Source: Candidatus Hodarchaeota archaeon
Lineage (GTDB): Archaea; Asgardarchaeota; Heimdallarchaeia; Hodarchaeales; Hodarchaeaceae
Assembly: GCA_029856365.1 (NCBI GenBank)
Contig: JAHQWW010000024.1
Location: 1-45,502, forward strand
Direction: 5' to 3'
DNA: 45,502 nt
The notes beneath the pieces are model-generated. The model made no database searches, was not told where the DNA came from, and saw nothing but the letters and a program-made list of their open reading frames with translations. The first letter of the stretch is position 1; each line of letters opens with the position of its first letter. A program made the translations under genes and the position numbers. Shown piece after piece: positions 1 to 41,176 of this stretch.

Positions 1-2651
1 TCCAGTTTTATATCTTGAAAAAATCCATCTATTCCCAAGGGGACTTTAAAAAGTTGACTTAATTCCTTCGCGCTAGATGAATTCACAAGTGGAGTGGTTA
101 ATAATATTAAATCAGCTGGATAAGAATAATCTTCTCCCGTAAATATGTTATGGAATGATATAGTGATTCCAGATTCACTAATTACTACATTGGGTTTGTT
201 TTCCTCTTTATAACGTATGAAATACACCTGTGGAAGTTTTCGTACCTCACTATAATATTCTTCAGCAATTTTTTCAACTAATCGAATATCTTGATGCAGA
301 ATGTGAATATGAGCATTAGGATAGACTTCACTTAATCTTCGTGCAGTTTTTAAAATAGCTGCGCATCCAACTCTGCAACAATACGTACGGTTGCTTTTTT
401 CTTTCTCTTTCGATCCCACGCAGCTTATCAGAAATATGTTGGTAACATCTTTCGGTAATTTCTTCTTCTTAAGTGCTTGTTCAAATTCTAGTAAAGTCAG
501 TATGTTCTTATGGCGAGAATAGCCATAATATCCAACTGGTTTGAATTCCTCACCACCAGTCGCAATAATAACAGTTCCAACGTTGATTTTTTTGCTATCA
601 TCACCTGAAAGGATAATTTCAAAATTTCCGACATATCCCCCAACATTTTCAACAGTTGTACTAAGATATACATGAATTTTTGGATTATTGGATATACTAT
701 TAATCTTCTCTTTCAGAATATCTCCAGCAAATTGATCTGTAGGAAATAATGTCATCATTGTACGTAAAAGGCCTCCCAAGTTCTTCTTCTTTTCCACTAA
801 ATGAACATCAAACCCCATATTTGCAAGATCGTCAGCAGCAGTTAGTCCTGCAATTCCTCCACCGATAATTAGTGCTTCTGGAATCACTTTGAGTTGTTTT
901 CTTACAGATGGTTCTAATAAACGGGCTTTTGCCACTGCCATAGCTGTAAGATCTTTGGCTTTATCAGTAGCATTTTCCCGCTCGTGTGAATGGACCCAGG
1001 AACATTGGTCGCGGATATTTGCCATCTCAAAGAGAGATTCATTCAAACCTGCTTCTTTGCAGGTTGTTCGAAAAAGGGATTCATGCGTTCTCGGAGAACA
1101 TGACGCAACAACAATCCGGTTTAGATTATAATCTTGAATAGCCTTTTTTATCAGAGTCTGAGTAGCTTCTGAACAGGTAAAAAGGTTATTTGTGGCGAAT
1201 TTAACATTGAGTAGGCTTTTTGCATATTTGGTTACGCTTTCCACATCAAGATAGCCGCCAATATTATGCCCACAATGACAAATAAAAACTCCAATTCGTG
1301 GTTCCTCATCCCTTATATCTTGTAATATAATAGATGTTTCCTTGACTACTTCTTTATCAACTTCGAAGTTATTTTTAGCTATTATAGCTAAAGCTTTCGA
1401 TGCAGCACCGCTTGCTTGAGAAACAGAATCTGGAATATCTCTTGGACCAGAACTACACCCACAGAGGTAGATACCATCAACTGAAGCTTCTAGTGGTGAT
1501 GATATGGCTTTTTCTTTAAAAAAACCATATTTATCAAGTTCTACTCCTAGGATCTCTGCTAATTTTTTATTGCTTTCTGGGGCTTTAATAGCAGAGGATA
1601 AAACTACTAAATCTACGTTTAGCTCAGCAGCCTTTGCAGAAATAATATCTTCATAATATATGACTAAATTATTGTTATTTGTTTCATTAATTTCCGCTGG
1701 ACGACTTTTTATATAATTGATCCCAGTATCATGTTTTCCTCTCTGATAATATTCTTCAAAGCCTTTTCCATATGCTCGTAGATCCATATAGAAAATATAG
1801 GGATTAATTTCAGAATGATGTTCTTTAGCTATCATTGCTTGTTTAGTTGCCCACATACAACATACACGAGAACAATATGGTTGATTTATTGTAACATCAC
1901 GAGAACCTACGCATTGAATCCAAGCAATGGTCTTTGGTATCTTTCCGTCCGAAAGTCGGCGAACTTGCCCTTCTGTTGGTCCTGATGCAGAAAGCAATCG
2001 TTCAAATTGCATTCCTGTAATAATATTAGGATAAATGCCATATCCTAAATTCCTCTTTACTTTAGGGTCAAATTCTTCAAATCCTGTAGCTAATATGATT
2101 GCAAATACCTTGATTTTACGAATTTTTGGTTTATCATTACGATTTATTGCACCTGGAACACATACTAATTCACATAATCCACAATTAAGGCAATAATCCA
2201 TATCAATTGTGGCAACATTCGGGACTGCTTGCGCAAAATAACGATAAATAGCGCCCCTAAGACCCAAATTATGATCAAATTCATTTAAAACCTTAACTGG
2301 ACAAACTTCAAAACAATCCCCACAACCAGAACATTTTGACGTGTCAATGTAACGTGGTTTTTCTTCTATAGTGACTGTAAAGTTACCTATTGTTCCCTCC
2401 ACCTTAGTGATATTAGCATAAGTGATTATTTCAATCTGCTCATTCCGTCCAACTTCAACCATTTTGGGAGCTTCAATGCATATCGCACAATCATTTGTAG
2501 GGAGAGTTTTATCAAGTTTTGCCATCGCTCCTCCAATTGCTGGTGCATAATCAACTAGATATACTTGGATCTTCTGGTTAGCAATATCGAGTGCAGCTTG
2601 CATACCTGCTATCCCTCCGCCAATAACTAGAACTCCATTAATCGCATTCAT
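1..2651 (-). CDS. hdrA: HdrA-like FAD/Fe-S protein (CoB-CoM heterodisulfide reductase subunit A family, double-module type); 3' end runs off the window
   Basis: Not in the ORF track because it has no stop inside the window. Manual translation from ATG at 2651 is open to position 1 (~883 codons): VLVIGGGIAGMQAALDIA, LDKTLPTNDCAICIEAPKM, ferredoxin motifs CSGCGDCFEVCP and CLNCGLCELVC, CVGSRD..YCSRVCCM, GCSSGPRDIPDSV; then a second module RIGVFICHCGHNIGG..VVASCSPRTHE..NIRDQCSWVH, ALIIGGGIAG, CVGSK..YCCRVGC. Confidence 0.92.
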   Translation of the reverse strand, partial: MNAINGVLVIGGGIAGMQAALDIANQKIQVYLVDYAPAIGGAMAKLDKTLPTNDCAICIEAPKMVEVGRNEQIEIITYANITKVEGTIGNFTVTIEEKPRYIDTSKCSGCGDCFEVCPVKVLNEFDHNLGLRGAIYRYFAQAVPNVATIDMDYCLNCGLCELVCVPGAINRNDKPKIRKIKVFAIILATGFEEFDPKVKRNLGYGIYPNIITGMQFERLLSASGPTEGQVRRLSDGKIPKTIAWIQCVGSRDVTINQPYCSRVCCMWATKQAMIAKEHHSEINPYIFYMDLRAYGKGFEEYYQRGKHDTGINYIKSRPAEINETNNNNLVIYYEDIISAKAAELNVDLVVLSSAIKAPESNKKLAEILGVELDKYGFFKEKAISSPLEASVDGIYLCGCSSGPRDIPDSVSQASGAASKALAIIAKNNFEVDKEVVKETSIILQDIRDEEPRIGVFICHCGHNIGGYLDVESVTKYAKSLLNVKFATNNLFTCSEATQTLIKKAIQDYNLNRIVVASCSPRTHESLFRTTCKEAGLNESLFEMANIRDQCSWVHSHERENATDKAKDLTAMAVAKARLLEPSVRKQLKVIPEALIIGGGIAGLTAADDLANMGFDVHLVEKKKNLGGLLRTMMTLFPTDQFAGDILKEKINSISNNPKIHVYLSTTVENVGGYVGNFEIILSGDDSKKINVGTVIIATGGEEFKPVGYYGYSRHKNILTLLEFEQALKKKKLPKDVTNIFLISCVGSKEKEKSNRTYCCRVGCAAILKTARRLSEVYPNAHIHILHQDIRLVEKIAEEYYSEVRKLPQVYFIRYKEENKPNVVISESGITISFHNIFTGEDYSYPADLILLTTPLVNSSSAKELSQLFKVPLGIDGFFQDIKL

Positions 2652-37664: not shown

Positions 37665-37756
37665 TTGGGTTAATTTCCTAAATAAATCTCAAGCTGAACT
37701 ACACATTAAAACCCTAAATAAAATTATTGTAATAGAATTTATATTCGGTGAATTTT

Positions 37757-37906
37757 ATGTGTCAATGGTGTGTTGAGCACACTGTACGAAAATTTTGGTA
37801 TTTGGAGCCCTTAAACAATCCTTTAGGAACGATAAACAAGTTTCTTGGTCTGTTAATTTTGCTTTTTGAAATAGTCTTAGGAGGATGGTTATTATTTTAT
37901 TCATAG
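37757..37906 (+). CDS. 49-aa ORF with CxxCxxH and a C-terminal hydrophobic helix (microprotein or gene remnant)
   Basis: MCQWCVEHTVRKFWYLEPLNNPLGTINKFLGLLILLFEIVLGGWLLFYS; GGTGA SD-like sequence upstream; below the ORF-track cutoff. Confidence 0.4.
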   Translation: MCQWCVEHTVRKFWYLEPLNNPLGTINKFLGLLILLFEIVLGGWLLFYS

Positions 37907-38281
37907 ATCATCCACTAGCGGATGTGGCTGAGAGTGAATTGATACCAATATTAATTATAATTTTGCCTCGAATGATGATGAAACTAACTGATTGGTTGAA
38001 TCTAGGAAAATTTATCCTTATTGCCTTTAAAAATTCAGATTATTAAGAGTGATCAAAATTAAGAATAATAAGAATTTCCGAATTTTTTGATTTGAAATTT
38101 ATGGAAAGCTGGCTTTAACAATTATAATAAACGTTTGAGGCATCATTTTTTTGAAATAGGATCCCCTTCTATATAATTTTTAAATTTGAATTCACAAATT
38201 ACTTGGTAAGAAAAGTAGTATGAAATTATTGTAGTATACTATAATGTAATAATACTTATTTTTGACAACCCTTTTGACTTA

Positions 38282-40234
38282 ATGGAAAAAGCTCTAATGG
38301 TTGATAACACGTTGGGAAAAAGATCTAAAACTAAACAGCAGTTCAAATTTATTTTCATGCTAATGATATTAATCGGATCACTGATTTTATTAATTTTGGA
38401 AATGTTTCCAACCACCTCTGATCGTATACAATTTCCACCACCAGATTATAAAGGTTATTTACCTTTAAGTACTGCTATAAATCAATCTAAATCATCTCGA
38501 GATCTTAGGAACTCTATAATTGAAAATAAAAGCATTTCTCAGTTAATGTGGGCTCTTCAAGGCGTAACACACGGCCCTCGTTTTCGAACTGTCCCATCTG
38601 CAGGTGCAACATATCCTTTGGAAATATTCATTGTCAGCAATGGAACATCTGCTCTAAAAAAAGGGTTGTACAATTATATTCCACAAGACCACCAGTTAAG
38701 ATGTGTTTCTTCTTCGTACAATTGGACAATATTACAATCTGCACTTTTTGGTGAAGATAGTGAGGCGGTATCAAACGTAAGTACTGTTTTTTTTATTTTT
38801 GCTGATTATGCTCGTACTACATTCAGATATGGTGATAGAGGAGTTCAATACGTACATCTGGAAGTAGGACACGCTATTCAAAATTTTCTTTTACAATTGG
38901 TTTCCCTGAATTTAAATACAAGAATGATTGCAAATTTTAATTCACATAAAATTCAGAATTTTCTAAATACAAAGCTAGAGCCTATGGTAGTACTACCCGT
39001 TGGTGTCAATGGAGGTTCTGATTCTCCTTTAATTAAACTCAAACAACTTAGTTTTAGTAACACAGAAGAAATGACTGTTGAGGAAGCCATTGCAAAACGT
39101 CAATCTGTGAGAGATTATCTAACTGGGAAAATTCCCCTCTCAGTAGTCTTAGATGTGTTGGAGGATAGCATCACAATTCCTCATATTGTTGGAAATAATT
39201 CTCAGCTCGACCTCCGTTTAGTAGTTAATGATATAGATGGATTGCCAATCGGTTCATACCGGTATTTCTTAGAGAATAATTCTTTATATCAATTATATCA
39301 AGGAGACTTGCGATCTTCCATCACGGAAACATATAGGATTTCAGGACAACCATGTGTTGTGGCAGCTCAATTAGATATTGTTATCTCGGTTGATACAGCT
39401 TGGATAAATCAACAGATTGATTTAAATCTTTATCATAGGATAATGATGTTTAATATCGGCATGATAGCTCAAAATATCTATCTTAAATGTGCTGTTAATG
39501 GCCTAGGGACAGTAGTCATAGGTGCTTTTTCAGGAAGTGGGTCAGCTCAGCTGTTAGATATTCCAAGTAGATATACTCCCATCTATCTCATACCTATTGG
39601 TCTGACACTCGAATATTTTGAAGAACCAACGGGCCTTCAACTTTCGTTATCAGAAATGGCAAGGTTAACAGGACTCTTGTTATATGTTCTCTTCTTTATT
39701 AGCCTATATCTCTCCCTGCCTATGCTAAGAAAACGTGTGAAAAAGAAAATACGTTGGTTACATTGCATATTTGGCATTGTCGCCTTTATAGGAGGGATTT
39801 TTCATTATATGGTTATCCACGGTCATGTTTACAATCTTTGGGAATTTCTAAATGTAACTTCTTATTTTAATGCTCTGAGTTACTTTATATTCAACATTTT
39901 TTTATTTCCAGAGACTCAAGTTGATGTAGGGATGCTCATGGCATACCTAACTGTATGTTTTGGAACCATTGCTGTCATTACTGGGGCTGTGTTTGCTTTC
40001 AAGCTGGTTAACCGAAGAACAATTCTTCGAACAATTCACAAATATTTTATCTTCTTCACACTAGTCTTTGCGATTATTCATAACATATTAAATGGAGTAA
40101 TTTTTGCAACTGAACCTTTTATTTTTCTTTTACTTAATATAATGGCTATAGATCTATATTTTGTATTGTACATCTCTCCTGATTTAGCTAAAGACATCTT
40201 TAAAAAGAAGGAAAGGATATCTGTCATCGAATAA
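38282..40234 (+). CDS. Signal anchor + tandem SagB/ThcOx-type nitroreductase domains + putative di-heme cytochrome b (ferric-reductase-like) TM domain
   Basis: RTVPSAGATYPLE, EVGHAIQN; KRQSVRDY, GMIAQN..GLGTVVIGAF; H494-x13-H508 and H586-x13-H600 in TM helices. Confidence 0.85.
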   Translation: MEKALMVDNTLGKRSKTKQQFKFIFMLMILIGSLILLILEMFPTTSDRIQFPPPDYKGYLPLSTAINQSKSSRDLRNSIIENKSISQLMWALQGVTHGPRFRTVPSAGATYPLEIFIVSNGTSALKKGLYNYIPQDHQLRCVSSSYNWTILQSALFGEDSEAVSNVSTVFFIFADYARTTFRYGDRGVQYVHLEVGHAIQNFLLQLVSLNLNTRMIANFNSHKIQNFLNTKLEPMVVLPVGVNGGSDSPLIKLKQLSFSNTEEMTVEEAIAKRQSVRDYLTGKIPLSVVLDVLEDSITIPHIVGNNSQLDLRLVVNDIDGLPIGSYRYFLENNSLYQLYQGDLRSSITETYRISGQPCVVAAQLDIVISVDTAWINQQIDLNLYHRIMMFNIGMIAQNIYLKCAVNGLGTVVIGAFSGSGSAQLLDIPSRYTPIYLIPIGLTLEYFEEPTGLQLSLSEMARLTGLLLYVLFFISLYLSLPMLRKRVKKKIRWLHCIFGIVAFIGGIFHYMVIHGHVYNLWEFLNVTSYFNALSYFIFNIFLFPETQVDVGMLMAYLTVCFGTIAVITGAVFAFKLVNRRTILRTIHKYFIFFTLVFAIIHNILNGVIFATEPFIFLLLNIMAIDLYFVLYISPDLAKDIFKKKERISVIE

Positions 40235-40237
40235 GAG

Positions 40238-41176
40238 GTGCCGAAAAAGGAGCTAGCTATTATGACTCGTTCTTCAAGAAAATGTATTGCGATATGTTGC
40301 CACGGATTTCTAGGCGAACCTGGAATGCTAAAAGAAATTGAGGCAACTCTTAATGAAGATCCTTTTGATCAGATATATGATCTTGTGTCTAATCTGTCTT
40401 ATTATAGTTCAAAGTATGGTATTAATTTTACACAGCCTTACGATCTGAAAACTCCGATTTTTAAGAATGACTCCAACCAATCGCTTGCTTATCATTTTTT
40501 TCTACAAATATGTTCAATTATCAAAGATTATAATGAAGAAGTAGACTTAGACATTTATGCTCATTCCATGGGCGGATTAGTAACGCGAAGCATGATAAAA
40601 TATCTATCAGAGGAAAAAAATAACAGTGTTTGGATAAAAAATGGATTAATCAGGAATATATTCTTATTAGGAACTCCTAATCATGGTACTAGACTAGCAC
40701 AACATGCAATAAATATTCCTGTTGATATTTTGATGACAGGAATGAATATCCTACTTGAACTTCCTGATGAGGTTACCTCTGAAGATTTGCAAATACTTAA
40801 TTCTCAGTTTATACAGATGATACCGAATTCATTTTTCCTTAAACGACTCAATCAACCTTCAAAAAATCTTGAAGAATCAATCAATTGGATTACAGTAAGG
40901 GGATTGAGGTGGATTGGGCAGCTTGGATGGTTACCAATGGTGTGGCAACCATTTCTCTTTAGAAAGTTCTGGATTGATCGTCATTTTCCATTCTTGCATG
41001 TTGGGGTCATTCCTAACGATGGATTAGTGGATGCTAGCCGCGTCCCTCTGAAATATGCAACCAATCTAACTGTCCCTAGTGCTACTCATATGAGTCTTCT
41101 TTATTGGAAGAGTAAAAAGTCAGGAAAACTAGTTTTAAAACTACTTAAACCAATAATTCTTGATAGAAAAATTTAA
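40238..41176 (+). CDS. Lipase/esterase-like alpha/beta hydrolase (PGAP1/DUF676-like)
   Basis: CHGFLG, AHSMGGLVTR, LGTPNHGT, NDGLV, ATH. Confidence 0.88.
   Translation: MPKKELAIMTRSSRKCIAICCHGFLGEPGMLKEIEATLNEDPFDQIYDLVSNLSYYSSKYGINFTQPYDLKTPIFKNDSNQSLAYHFFLQICSIIKDYNEEVDLDIYAHSMGGLVTRSMIKYLSEEKNNSVWIKNGLIRNIFLLGTPNHGTRLAQHAINIPVDILMTGMNILLELPDEVTSEDLQILNSQFIQMIPNSFFLKRLNQPSKNLEESINWITVRGLRWIGQLGWLPMVWQPFLFRKFWIDRHFPFLHVGVIPNDGLVDASRVPLKYATNLTVPSATHMSLLYWKSKKSGKLVLKLLKPIILDRKI

Follow-up and report, generated by a model that had tools for sequence, protein, structure and literature searches.

Members of the superfamily of ferric-reductase-domain (FRD) proteins (NOX, FRE, SpNOX and STEAP; PF01794) have six transmembrane (TM) helices with the N-terminus inside, and carry pairs of histidines on TM3 and TM5, for which a separation of 12–13 residues is the membership criterion. 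The MsrQ–MsrP (YedZ–YedY) system contains a short-form FRD protein which has no cytoplasmic domain of its own and passes electrons to a redox enzyme that lies beyond the membrane's outer face (PMC8238504, PMC3591440), namely the separate molybdoenzyme MsrP; the first TM3 histidine is absent in YedZ (PMC3591440). The ApbE-dependent extracytosolic flavoprotein systems (MsrQ-like, PepSY-like and NapH-like) follow the same concept, a membrane electron carrier serving a flavoprotein outside the cytoplasm, with FMN-bind domains that are covalently flavinylated (PMC8238504). In FdnI and HyaC (PF01292), as in cytochrome b561/Dcytb, two stacked b haems join an outer redox site to a quinone or cytoplasmic donor, and the partner enzymes of the FdnI/HyaC type are separate subunits. 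The histidine ligands of FdnI/HyaC and b561/Dcytb are spread over the helices differently than in the protein described here. Tandem nitroreductase folds in one chain are known from Ava_2154 (PDB 3eo7) and ThcOx (5lq4), which are soluble and have neither TM segments nor a cytochrome; ThcOx partners a cyclodehydratase pathway.

The protein P0001, encoded within the 45,502-nucleotide stretch of Asgard archaeal DNA that was analysed (the window), is most likely an electron-passing membrane protein whose parts are familiar and whose combination is apparently undescribed. It shares the six TM helices, the inside N-terminus and the TM3 and TM5 histidine pairs, at a 13-residue spacing, with the FRD superfamily, but lacks the cytoplasmic FAD/NADPH domain and has a predicted external flavin module inserted in loop A. 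Like MsrQ it would serve an outer redox enzyme as a short form, whereas its enzyme is a fused, putatively FMN-type nitroreductase pseudo-dimer and its family retains all four histidines. The proposed arrangement of two stacked b haems is that of FdnI/HyaC and b561/Dcytb, and the tandem nitroreductase chain is that of Ava_2154 and ThcOx. Unlike the ApbE-dependent flavoproteins, P0001 has no FMN-bind domain (no Pfam match to PF04205), and ApbE (PF02424) was not found in its genome by profile search. A nitroreductase fusion is absent from the listing of the FRD survey (PMC3591440), and nitroreductase goes unmentioned in PMC8238504. An earlier note on this DNA did not know the architecture, and our literature search likewise found no publication describing a fusion of nitroreductase and di-haem TM domains.

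The evidence presented here makes it fairly probable that P0001 is a single-chain trans-membrane electron conduit with an external flavin module and two haems. The domain families, the invariant ligand and FMN-motif residues, the signals of topology, and the homology and tentative fold likeness to FRD proteins come from computation; haem and FMN occupancy, coupling between FMN and haem, and an inner partner are what we infer. The earlier note had proposed such a conduit; the proposal was supported overall, and the refutation tests that could be run in silico did not refute it.

Gene, membrane helices and the four histidines

The frame claimed by the earlier note is open and uninterrupted over its 650 codons, with candidate start codons at 38282 (ATG), 38297 (ATG) and 38312 (TTG). 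Hydropathy analysis gave six TM segments (residues 23–42, 462–483, 492–514, 549–575, 586–608 and 613–634), the first of which coincides with the single N-terminal helix noted earlier; the basic N-terminus KRSKTK and the basic loop RKRVKKKIR were likewise located in the translation where they had been described. The whole-protein AF2 model (pLDDT 86, pTM 0.82) shows the TM segments as helices. Screening the whole model with Foldseek returned nitroreductases only, and the TM domain was therefore modelled separately (pLDDT 89.8).

Features of P0001 and their positions in the window
Feature	Position	Strand	Residues and remarks
Whole gene (P0001)	38282..40234	+	Single chain of 650 aa: TM1, then an ectodomain of tandem nitroreductase folds and a five-helix domain of di-haem type
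TM1	38348..38407	+	aa 23–42; predicted N-in signal anchor after KRSKTK; hydropathy; pLDDT 94–95 in full model
Ectodomain 1, SagB-type nitroreductase fold	38423..39007	+	aa 48–242; keeps R102/P105-S106-A107-G108 and Y183, RxSxR motif lost; passes TIGR03605 alone
RTVPSAGATYP loop, domain 1	38585..38617	+	Cross-subunit half of the single proposed FMN site; invariant residues
Ectodomain 2, divergent nitroreductase fold	39065..39604	+	aa 262–441; keeps R273-x-S275-x-R277, no PSAG loop
RQSVR, domain 2	39098..39112	+	FMN-phosphate-type RxSxR motif; R273, S275 and R277 invariant in 57/57
TM2–TM6, divergent FRD-like core	39647..40189	+	aa 456–636; basic inner loops KRVKKKIRW and VNRRTILRTI
H494 (TM3, inner end)	39761..39763	+	Proposed inner-haem ligand; invariant 57/57; aligned to the first of the two TM3 His in short FRD proteins
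H508 (TM3, outer end)	39803..39805	+	Proposed outer-haem ligand; invariant; aligned to FRD His
H586 (TM5, inner end)	40037..40039	+	Proposed inner-haem ligand; invariant; aligned to FRD His
H600 (TM5, outer end)	40079..40081	+	Proposed outer-haem ligand; invariant; aligned to FRD His

Conservation, spacing and charge were assessed in 57 full-length homologues (25–80% identity). The two pairs H494/H508 and H586/H600 lie where the earlier note had placed them, and all four histidines, together with P480, are invariant even in the homologues of 25% identity, a pattern beyond chance; the H-x13-H spacing is kept in 56/57 homologues for one pair and in 57/57 for the other. The proposed ligands of an inner haem b are H494 and H586, and those of an outer one H508 and H600.

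The kinship of the TM domain with FRD/NOX/MsrQ-type di-haem domains, suggested by the earlier note, is supported by profile comparisons and may extend to the fold, with P0001 itself below every Pfam cytochrome/FRD threshold and without a PF01794 match at E ≤ 1. Weak Pfam matches within the TM-domain family (DUF4405 in 17, Ni_hydr_CYTB in 15 and Ferric_reduct in 3 of 24 members) fall nearly all in di-haem b families. When a profile of the TM domain (A3) was run against 1.84 billion proteins, it matched a protein (P0108; library-wide E 5e-5) that exceeds the PF01794 threshold (31.3 bits against 28). Furthermore, hhalign of A3 with eight short Asgard FRD proteins (A4) gave 90.3% (E 1.4e-6, 146 columns), with all four histidines aligned and the match beginning past TM1 of the template. 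Against L106, a template of one long-form FRD sequence, the value was 5.5% with a shifted alignment, a result regarded as uninformative given the single-sequence template, and A3 gave 0 matches at E ≤ 10 among PDB sequences. L106 is a true long-form FRD protein from a congener; a PF01794 profile search of the genome encoding P0001 gave no match.

In the fold comparisons, the top Foldseek matches to the TM domain were STEAP2, NOX5-TM and SpNOX, at E 0.27–0.35, with no E-value for this domain better than 0.27. VIA gave Z values of 14.1 for cytochrome b561, 13.7 for Dcytb, 12.2 for STEAP1, 12.1 for STEAP4 and 11.4 for NOX5, the FRD chains thus falling under the caution level for helical bundles of roughly 13. 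A structure atlas set a PF01794 cluster at TM 0.63 to the domain, and the ESM-atlas feature matches (scores <0.8) serve as leads only. Judged from the alignments, TM2–TM6 is a divergent version of FRD TM2–TM6. The N-terminal anchor probably completes a six-helix unit as FRD TM1, so that TM1 (N-in) and TM2–TM6 would form an FRD-like bundle; with the anchor at this position, the flavin pseudo-dimer of ∼400 residues would lie inside outer loop A, between TM1 and TM2.

Haem supply bears on this assignment from both sides. Cytochrome bd subunit I (CydA) is encoded in the genome, which makes haem proteins and a quinol pool plausible. Searches of this genome (83.6% complete) revealed neither ALAD nor PBG deaminase. 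Of 18 congeners searched for ALAD, a single one had it, at a contig edge, and the four congeners checked for both enzymes (two 96–99% complete; two single-contig, 96% and 70%) gave neither. Haem would consequently need scavenging, and may be scavenged. If the TM domain were no cytochrome, its histidines binding a non-haem metal or being structural, P0001 would be an anchored surface flavoenzyme with soluble external partners (O2). The results for ALAD and PBG deaminase in the genus fit this alternative, as do the sub-threshold matches of P0001 itself to haem proteins, in sequence and in fold, and the existence of anchor-only homologues, whose ectodomain is able to work without the TM domain. 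We nonetheless regard it as quite unlikely: H-x13-H pairs of fixed spacing on TM3 and TM5 align with the four FRD histidines, the weak matches and fold neighbours are nearly all di-haem b proteins, and the haem-dependent cytochrome bd in the same genomes means that haem must be available.

Putative flavin ectodomain

Two nitroreductase domains had been described in the earlier note, and Pfam Nitroreductase (PF00881) indeed matches P0001 twice (E 3.3e-26). The SagB model TIGR03605 (cut-off 78.4 bits) is also passed, at 141.9 bits by the whole protein and 104.8 bits by domain 1 alone. The tandem nitroreductase 3eo7 is the best solved match to the full model (Foldseek E 1.6e-19) and the best match to residues 43–450 both by sequence and by fold; the sequence and fold matches include McbC, ThcOx and BmdC, and the Acg homologue 2ymv is also matched by fold.

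Domain 2 alone retains the RxSxR motif and domain 1 alone the R..PSAG motif, whereas a soluble paralogue has both in one domain. Because domains 1 and 2 keep complementary motifs, a single FMN site is predicted from the sequence, to which domain 2 would contribute RxSxR and domain 1 the R..PSAG loop. R102, P105, S106, A107 and G108 show no variation (57/57 homologues), and the invariant columns also include Y111 and P112. Y183, also invariant in 57/57, aligns with FKY of McbC and is preceded by Arg in 43/57 and by Lys in 7/57 sequences.

Two considerations weigh on the conduit reading at this point. Classical nitroreductases shun one-electron chemistry and so make an awkward fit with haem partners. 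Moreover, P0001 has no twin-arginine motif and its anchor is of the Sec type; how FMN would be loaded into a domain exported unfolded lacks explanation, which counts against the conduit reading. With ApbE and hence an external flavin-loading route not found, the ectodomain might be a flavin-free pseudo-enzyme, an Acg-type binding or receptor module, with the di-haem domain handling or sensing haem or iron in a haem auxotroph. The match to 2ymv would suit such a module, and apparent haem auxotrophy would favour surface haem or iron chemistry. This account is decidedly unlikely, however, since the invariance of R273/S275/R277, R102, P105–G108 and Y183 would be difficult to account for if there were no cofactor site, and domain 1 passes the SagB model.

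Databases name the protein a SagB family peptide dehydrogenase, that is, an azoline dehydrogenase from a pathway that makes thiazole/oxazole-modified peptides. The TIGR03605 score, the matches to McbC, ThcOx and BmdC, and the invariant Tyr of the Lys-Tyr motif, the active-site motif of the SagB-type family, agree with the name, yet the assignment is highly improbable, as the motif Lys is replaced by Arg in 43/57 homologues, the domains are predicted to be extracellular, such pathways contain no equivalent of the fused TM domain, and the cyclodehydratase YcaO was found neither in the genome (83.6% complete) nor in the nine homologue neighbourhoods examined. The conduit reading would correct the database name, the peptide-antibiotic role being unsupported by context.

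Orientation in the membrane

The flavin domains had been placed outside in the earlier note, and three lines of evidence agree with this: a family-wide positive-inside charge, an enrichment in sequons and the alignment to FRD TM2–TM6. Across the 57 sequences, net charge is +2.0 at the N-terminus, +4.5 in loop 484–491, +4.3 in loop 576–585 and +1.2 at the C-terminus, and the flanks of the flavin domains and the outer loop are negative. All eight sequons listed earlier (N67, N82, N120, N147, N165, N305, N332 and N524) are present. The ectodomain has 6.9 sequons where shuffled sequences have 3.4, and the density per 100 residues is 1.74 in P0001 and 1.2–1.4 in anchored homologues, against 0.24–0.52 in TM-less homologues and 0.53 in soluble ORFs of the window; the enrichment, put at 3-fold, is confined to anchored forms. 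From charge bias, sequons and FRD homology the nitroreductase domains are predicted to be extracytoplasmic, and the ectodomain is probably N-glycosylated.

Characterised SagB-type nitroreductases are cytoplasmic. The flavin module of FRD enzymes is usually cytoplasmic as well (PMC3591440), and a reversed P0001, its nitroreductase domains being the cytoplasmic electron-input module of a NOX-like enzyme, would conform to both, but is scarcely tenable given the charge bias at six positions in 57 sequences, sequon enrichment in anchored forms only and an FRD TM2–TM6 alignment that sets loop A outside.

Proposed electron path, host genomes and distribution

In the conduit reading, electrons would move in either direction between FMN, the outer haem, the inner haem and a membrane quinone or cytoplasmic partner. 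P0001 would have no cytoplasmic domain to act at the inner end: its cytoplasmic tail is ∼15 residues long, and no Pfam match to an FAD- and NAD(P)H-binding C-terminal domain was obtained. As to quinone, MqnA and MqnD were not found; NuoH-like genes are present and are ambiguous in this respect, related subunits occurring in membrane hydrogenases. Between a surface dehydrogenase passing electrons inward and a NOX/MsrQ-like reductase working outward we lean slightly towards the former, because relatives in the SagB clade act as dehydrogenases or oxidases and some forms have the anchor but no cytochrome.

If the conduit reading is true, it adds a new wiring from cell surface to membrane, with a flavoenzyme in the outer loop of a NOX/MsrQ-type di-haem domain and no cytoplasmic module. 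It would then bear on FRD diversification, on the loading of FMN and probably scavenged haem into an archaeal surface protein without ApbE or a tetrapyrrole pathway, and on the external redox chemistry of Heimdallarchaeia, electron exchange with partners being central to models of eukaryogenesis. The Asgard lineage in question is usually placed closest to eukaryotes among archaea. More speculatively, and on balance unlikely, the family might give Heimdallarchaeia a dedicated means of electron exchange with their surroundings that needs no multihaem c-type cytochromes. It would be an ‘inside-out NOX’ with which hosts that make no haem use external substrates, organic or mineral, or a syntrophic partner either for respiration or as a source of electrons.

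Two neighbouring genes, a 2x[4Fe-4S] gene upstream and an alpha/beta-hydrolase gene downstream, were considered as obligatory partners and rejected, both being kept in one syntenic subclade only and absent or replaced elsewhere. One congener that carries the P0001 gene is without CydA and COX1. Candidate stand-alone TM-domain forms, which would represent a split version of the protein, were also discarded, as the short matches are mostly fragments. The anchor-only homologues of 420–440 residues, on the other hand, genuinely stop ahead of the TM domain. Asgard (Heimdallarchaeia) genomes were the only ones in which the fused architecture was found. In nearly all cases this TM domain is joined to a nitroreductase or to other N-terminal domains rich in sequons, which favours the conduit reading.

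Domain organisation and the predicted flavin site

The reading frame of P0001, the tandem nitroreductase protein, is intact, with an ambiguous start codon: the database copy begins at M6 (38297) and close homologues begin where TTG 38312 stands. Pfam returned two Nitroreductase matches (E 3.3e-26), and the SagB domain model TIGR03605 (NCBIfam) scored 141.9 bits (cut-off 78.4), domain 1 passing on its own (104.8 bits) and the more divergent domain 2 reaching 43.7 bits. The two nitroreductase/SagB domains proposed in the earlier note are thereby borne out, and translation places KRSKTK, RKRVKKKIR, H494/H508, H586/H600 and the eight N-x-S/T sequons where it had put them. In Foldseek, the closest match of the AF2 model of the whole protein (pLDDT 86, pTM 0.82) was 3eo7, a tandem nitroreductase (E 1.6e-19); single-domain FMN nitroreductases, BmdC, ThcOx and McbC came next, and the sequence search was concordant.

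In domain 1, R102, P105-S106-A107-G108 and Y183 are invariant and the N-terminal RxSxR position is not conserved; in domain 2, R273-x-S275-x-R277 is invariant and the PSAG loop is absent. A soluble SagB-like paralogue in the same genome (33% identical to aa 7–238) carries RxSxR and PSAG together in one domain. In nitroreductase homodimers, elements from both chains hold each FMN, which with this complementary retention of motifs implies one predicted composite FMN site shared by domains 1 and 2. YcaO was found neither in the genome nor beside any homologue examined; ‘SagB family peptide dehydrogenase’ is therefore a label for the fold rather than an assignment to a pathway, and identity as a SagB-pathway peptide dehydrogenase was rejected.

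Across 57 sequences, mean net charge was +2.0 before TM1, +4.5 in loop 484–491, +4.3 in loop 576–585 and +1.2 in the C-terminal tail; it was negative in loop 515–548 and on either side of the nitroreductase region. Such a distribution follows the positive-inside rule for a protein that is N-in, crosses the membrane six times and exposes aa 43–455 on the outside. Ectodomain sequons averaged 6.9, against 3.4 after shuffling. Their density was 1.74 per 100 aa in the P0001 ectodomain, 1.2–1.4 in the anchored relatives P0066 and P0072, 0.24–0.52 in the TM-less relatives P0079 and P0080, and 0.53 in soluble ORFs of the window (observed/expected 1.09). The alignment to ferric reductase domains (FRD) described below gives the same orientation, and charge, sequons and homology together place the flavin domains outside, the predicted location the earlier note had favoured.

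Membrane domain and its conserved histidines

By itself, P0001 gave a weak Pfam match to Ni_hydr_CYTB and nothing stronger for the membrane part. When 24 homologues were scanned one at a time over their last 200 residues, the matches, all sub-threshold, fell almost exclusively on di-haem b families (DUF4405 17/24, Ni_hydr_CYTB 15/24, DUF4079 6/24, Ferric_reduct 3/24). An exhaustive search of 1.84 billion representatives with the TM-domain profile retrieved 37 proteins only, mostly the same fusion; shorter matches have one nitroreductase domain each, and others show sequon-rich N-terminal domains of unknown family and weak but full-length Ferric_reduct matches. P0108, one of these matches (E 5e-5 library-wide), has 228 aa and six TM helices and passes PF01794 with 31.3 bits against a cut-off of 28. 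The family profile was compared by hhalign with A4, an alignment of eight short Asgard proteins (~205 aa) whose PF01794 matches span almost the entire model and whose scores in the genome searches, 24.6–30.4 bits, straddle the 28-bit cut-off. The match (90.3% probability, E 1.4e-6, 146 columns) aligns all four histidines and starts after TM1 of the template.

The model of aa 450–650 (pLDDT 89.8) matched STEAP2, the NOX5 TM domain, S. pneumoniae NOX, STEAP1 and STEAP4 best in the PDB by Foldseek, with probabilities up to 0.99 but weak E-values of 0.27–0.6. VIA-align Z-scores were 14.1 for cytochrome b561, 13.7 for Dcytb, 12.2 for STEAP1, 12.1 for STEAP4 and 11.4 for NOX5, and an atlas structure search gave a PF01794 cluster (TM 0.63). 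The suggested kinship to ferric-reductase-type domains is upheld by the A4 alignment, and FRD folds lead the Foldseek matches, at weak E-values. We conclude that TM2–TM6 constitute a divergent core of the FRD type. TM1 of the bundle probably comes from the N-terminal anchor (pLDDT 94–95 in the whole-protein model), in which case the nitroreductase tandem would be inserted into outer loop A.

In 57 full-length homologues (25–80% identity), H494, H508, H586, H600 and P480 are invariant, as the earlier note's reading required of the four histidines, and H513 and N604 nearly so; the H-x13-H spacing holds in 56/57 sequences for TM3 and 57/57 for TM5. Since both helices run from inside to outside, the positions of the histidines along them suggest that H494 and H586 would hold an inner haem and H508 and H600 an outer one.

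Searching 5.8 billion proteins by word index gave 79 relatives; wherever a source was named, the label was Hodarchaeales, Heimdallarchaeota, Kariarchaeaceae or another Asgard name. Among 185,579 species genomes the full-length architecture was confined to Asgard assemblies, the remaining kept matches being single-domain SagB-like genes of ~200 aa. In 30 relatives, the TM-domain profile matched 12/18 congeners and some other Heimdallarchaeial families. Anchor-only forms of 420–440 aa, which have the anchor and nitroreductase and no cytochrome, are real. Two relatives, P0104 and P0106, join the same divergent TM domain to other sequon-rich extracytoplasmic N-terminal domains with no Pfam match, a hint that outward-facing conduits of this kind form a modular family. 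Other Asgard families (L107–L113, L115) encode a family of short FRD proteins of ~205 aa with six TM helices, four histidines and no extra domains, whose scores lie close to the PF01794 cut-off.

Proposed electron path and its direction

The reading we favour, and consider rather probable, is that P0001 is a trans-membrane electron conduit, in which electrons would pass between FMN at the surface and a quinone or cytoplasmic partner by way of the outer and then the inner haem b. The direction is more finely balanced. To our knowledge every characterised FRD protein moves electrons outward, which favours outward flow here too. Relatives in the SagB clade, however, act as dehydrogenases or oxidases, and anchor-only forms would lack an external electron donor, yet could use O2 as acceptor; for these reasons we lean slightly against outward flow and towards a surface dehydrogenase delivering electrons inward.

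A NOX/FRE long form was rejected because P0001 has no cytoplasmic FAD/NADPH domain. A true long form (Ferric_reduct, FAD_binding_8 and NAD_binding_1, with H-x13-H and H-x12-H) occurs in a congener of the same Heimdallarchaeial genus. An ApbE-dependent system was likewise rejected, the Pfam scan of P0001 showing no FMN-bind domain and ApbE not being found in the genome; the survey of such systems does not mention nitroreductase (PMC8238504). Literature searches found no paper on the P0001 architecture, which appears to be undescribed, built from familiar kinds of component and argued here from computation.

Haem supply and gene neighbourhood

ALAD was not found in the genome (83.6% complete) and occurs in 1/18 congeners, at a contig edge. 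PBG deaminase was found in 0/5 genomes, namely this one and the congeners G007, G009, G011 and G015 (two 96–99% complete, two single-contig assemblies of 96% and 70%); ALAD was likewise missing from these four congeners. Four of these five, this genome included, encode cytochrome bd subunit I and one encodes COX1. Haem enzymes are thus encoded without the common tetrapyrrole trunk pathway, which suggests haem auxotrophy; the simplest reading would be that haem is scavenged, as certain lactic acid bacteria do. MqnA/D were searched for and not found; NuoH-like genes are present and ambiguous.

Coordinates of P0001, its helices and related genes
Feature	Coordinates	Strand	Length	Remarks
P0001	38282–40234	+	650 aa	
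Hydrophobic helices of P0001	aa 23–42, 462–483, 492–514, 549–575, 586–608, 613–634			six; hydropathy scan, 19-residue window
Fe-S gene remnant	37757–37846	+	30 codons	within 617-bp gap 37665–38281
Full 2x[4Fe-4S] copy	G000:C160:125266–126108			46% identical
Alpha/beta-hydrolase	40238–41176	+		begins 4 nt past P0001 stop
SagB-like paralogue	L005:1474–2211 (G000:C191)	−	245 aa	soluble, single-domain
FRD long form	L106:547–1902	−	452 aa	congener G017
P0075 neighbour	L003:8023–8742	−		
P0075 neighbour	L003:2442–3925	+		

In close relatives the gene order is OYE, GDT1, a 280-aa Cys-rich 2x[4Fe-4S] protein, the P0001 orthologue and an alpha/beta-hydrolase. In several relatives an intact Fe-S gene directly precedes the orthologue; in an 80%-identical relative it is cleanly lost, and in the window it is reduced to a remnant that reads MCQWCVEHTVRKFWYLEP...; a full copy lies elsewhere in the genome. 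With this decay or loss, and with unrelated neighbours in distant homologues, there is no obligatory partner gene. The hydrolase (DUF7379/DUF676/PGAP1-like, GHSMGG-type motif) is conserved downstream in one subclade only and has 6 sequons against 2.1 expected and no obvious signal sequence. At the locus of the distant homologue P0075 there is a convergent 239-aa NAD_binding_1 (FNR-like) gene and, upstream, a Redoxin and DsbD_TM pair and gamma-glutamyltranspeptidase, possible redox-envelope genes at this one locus.
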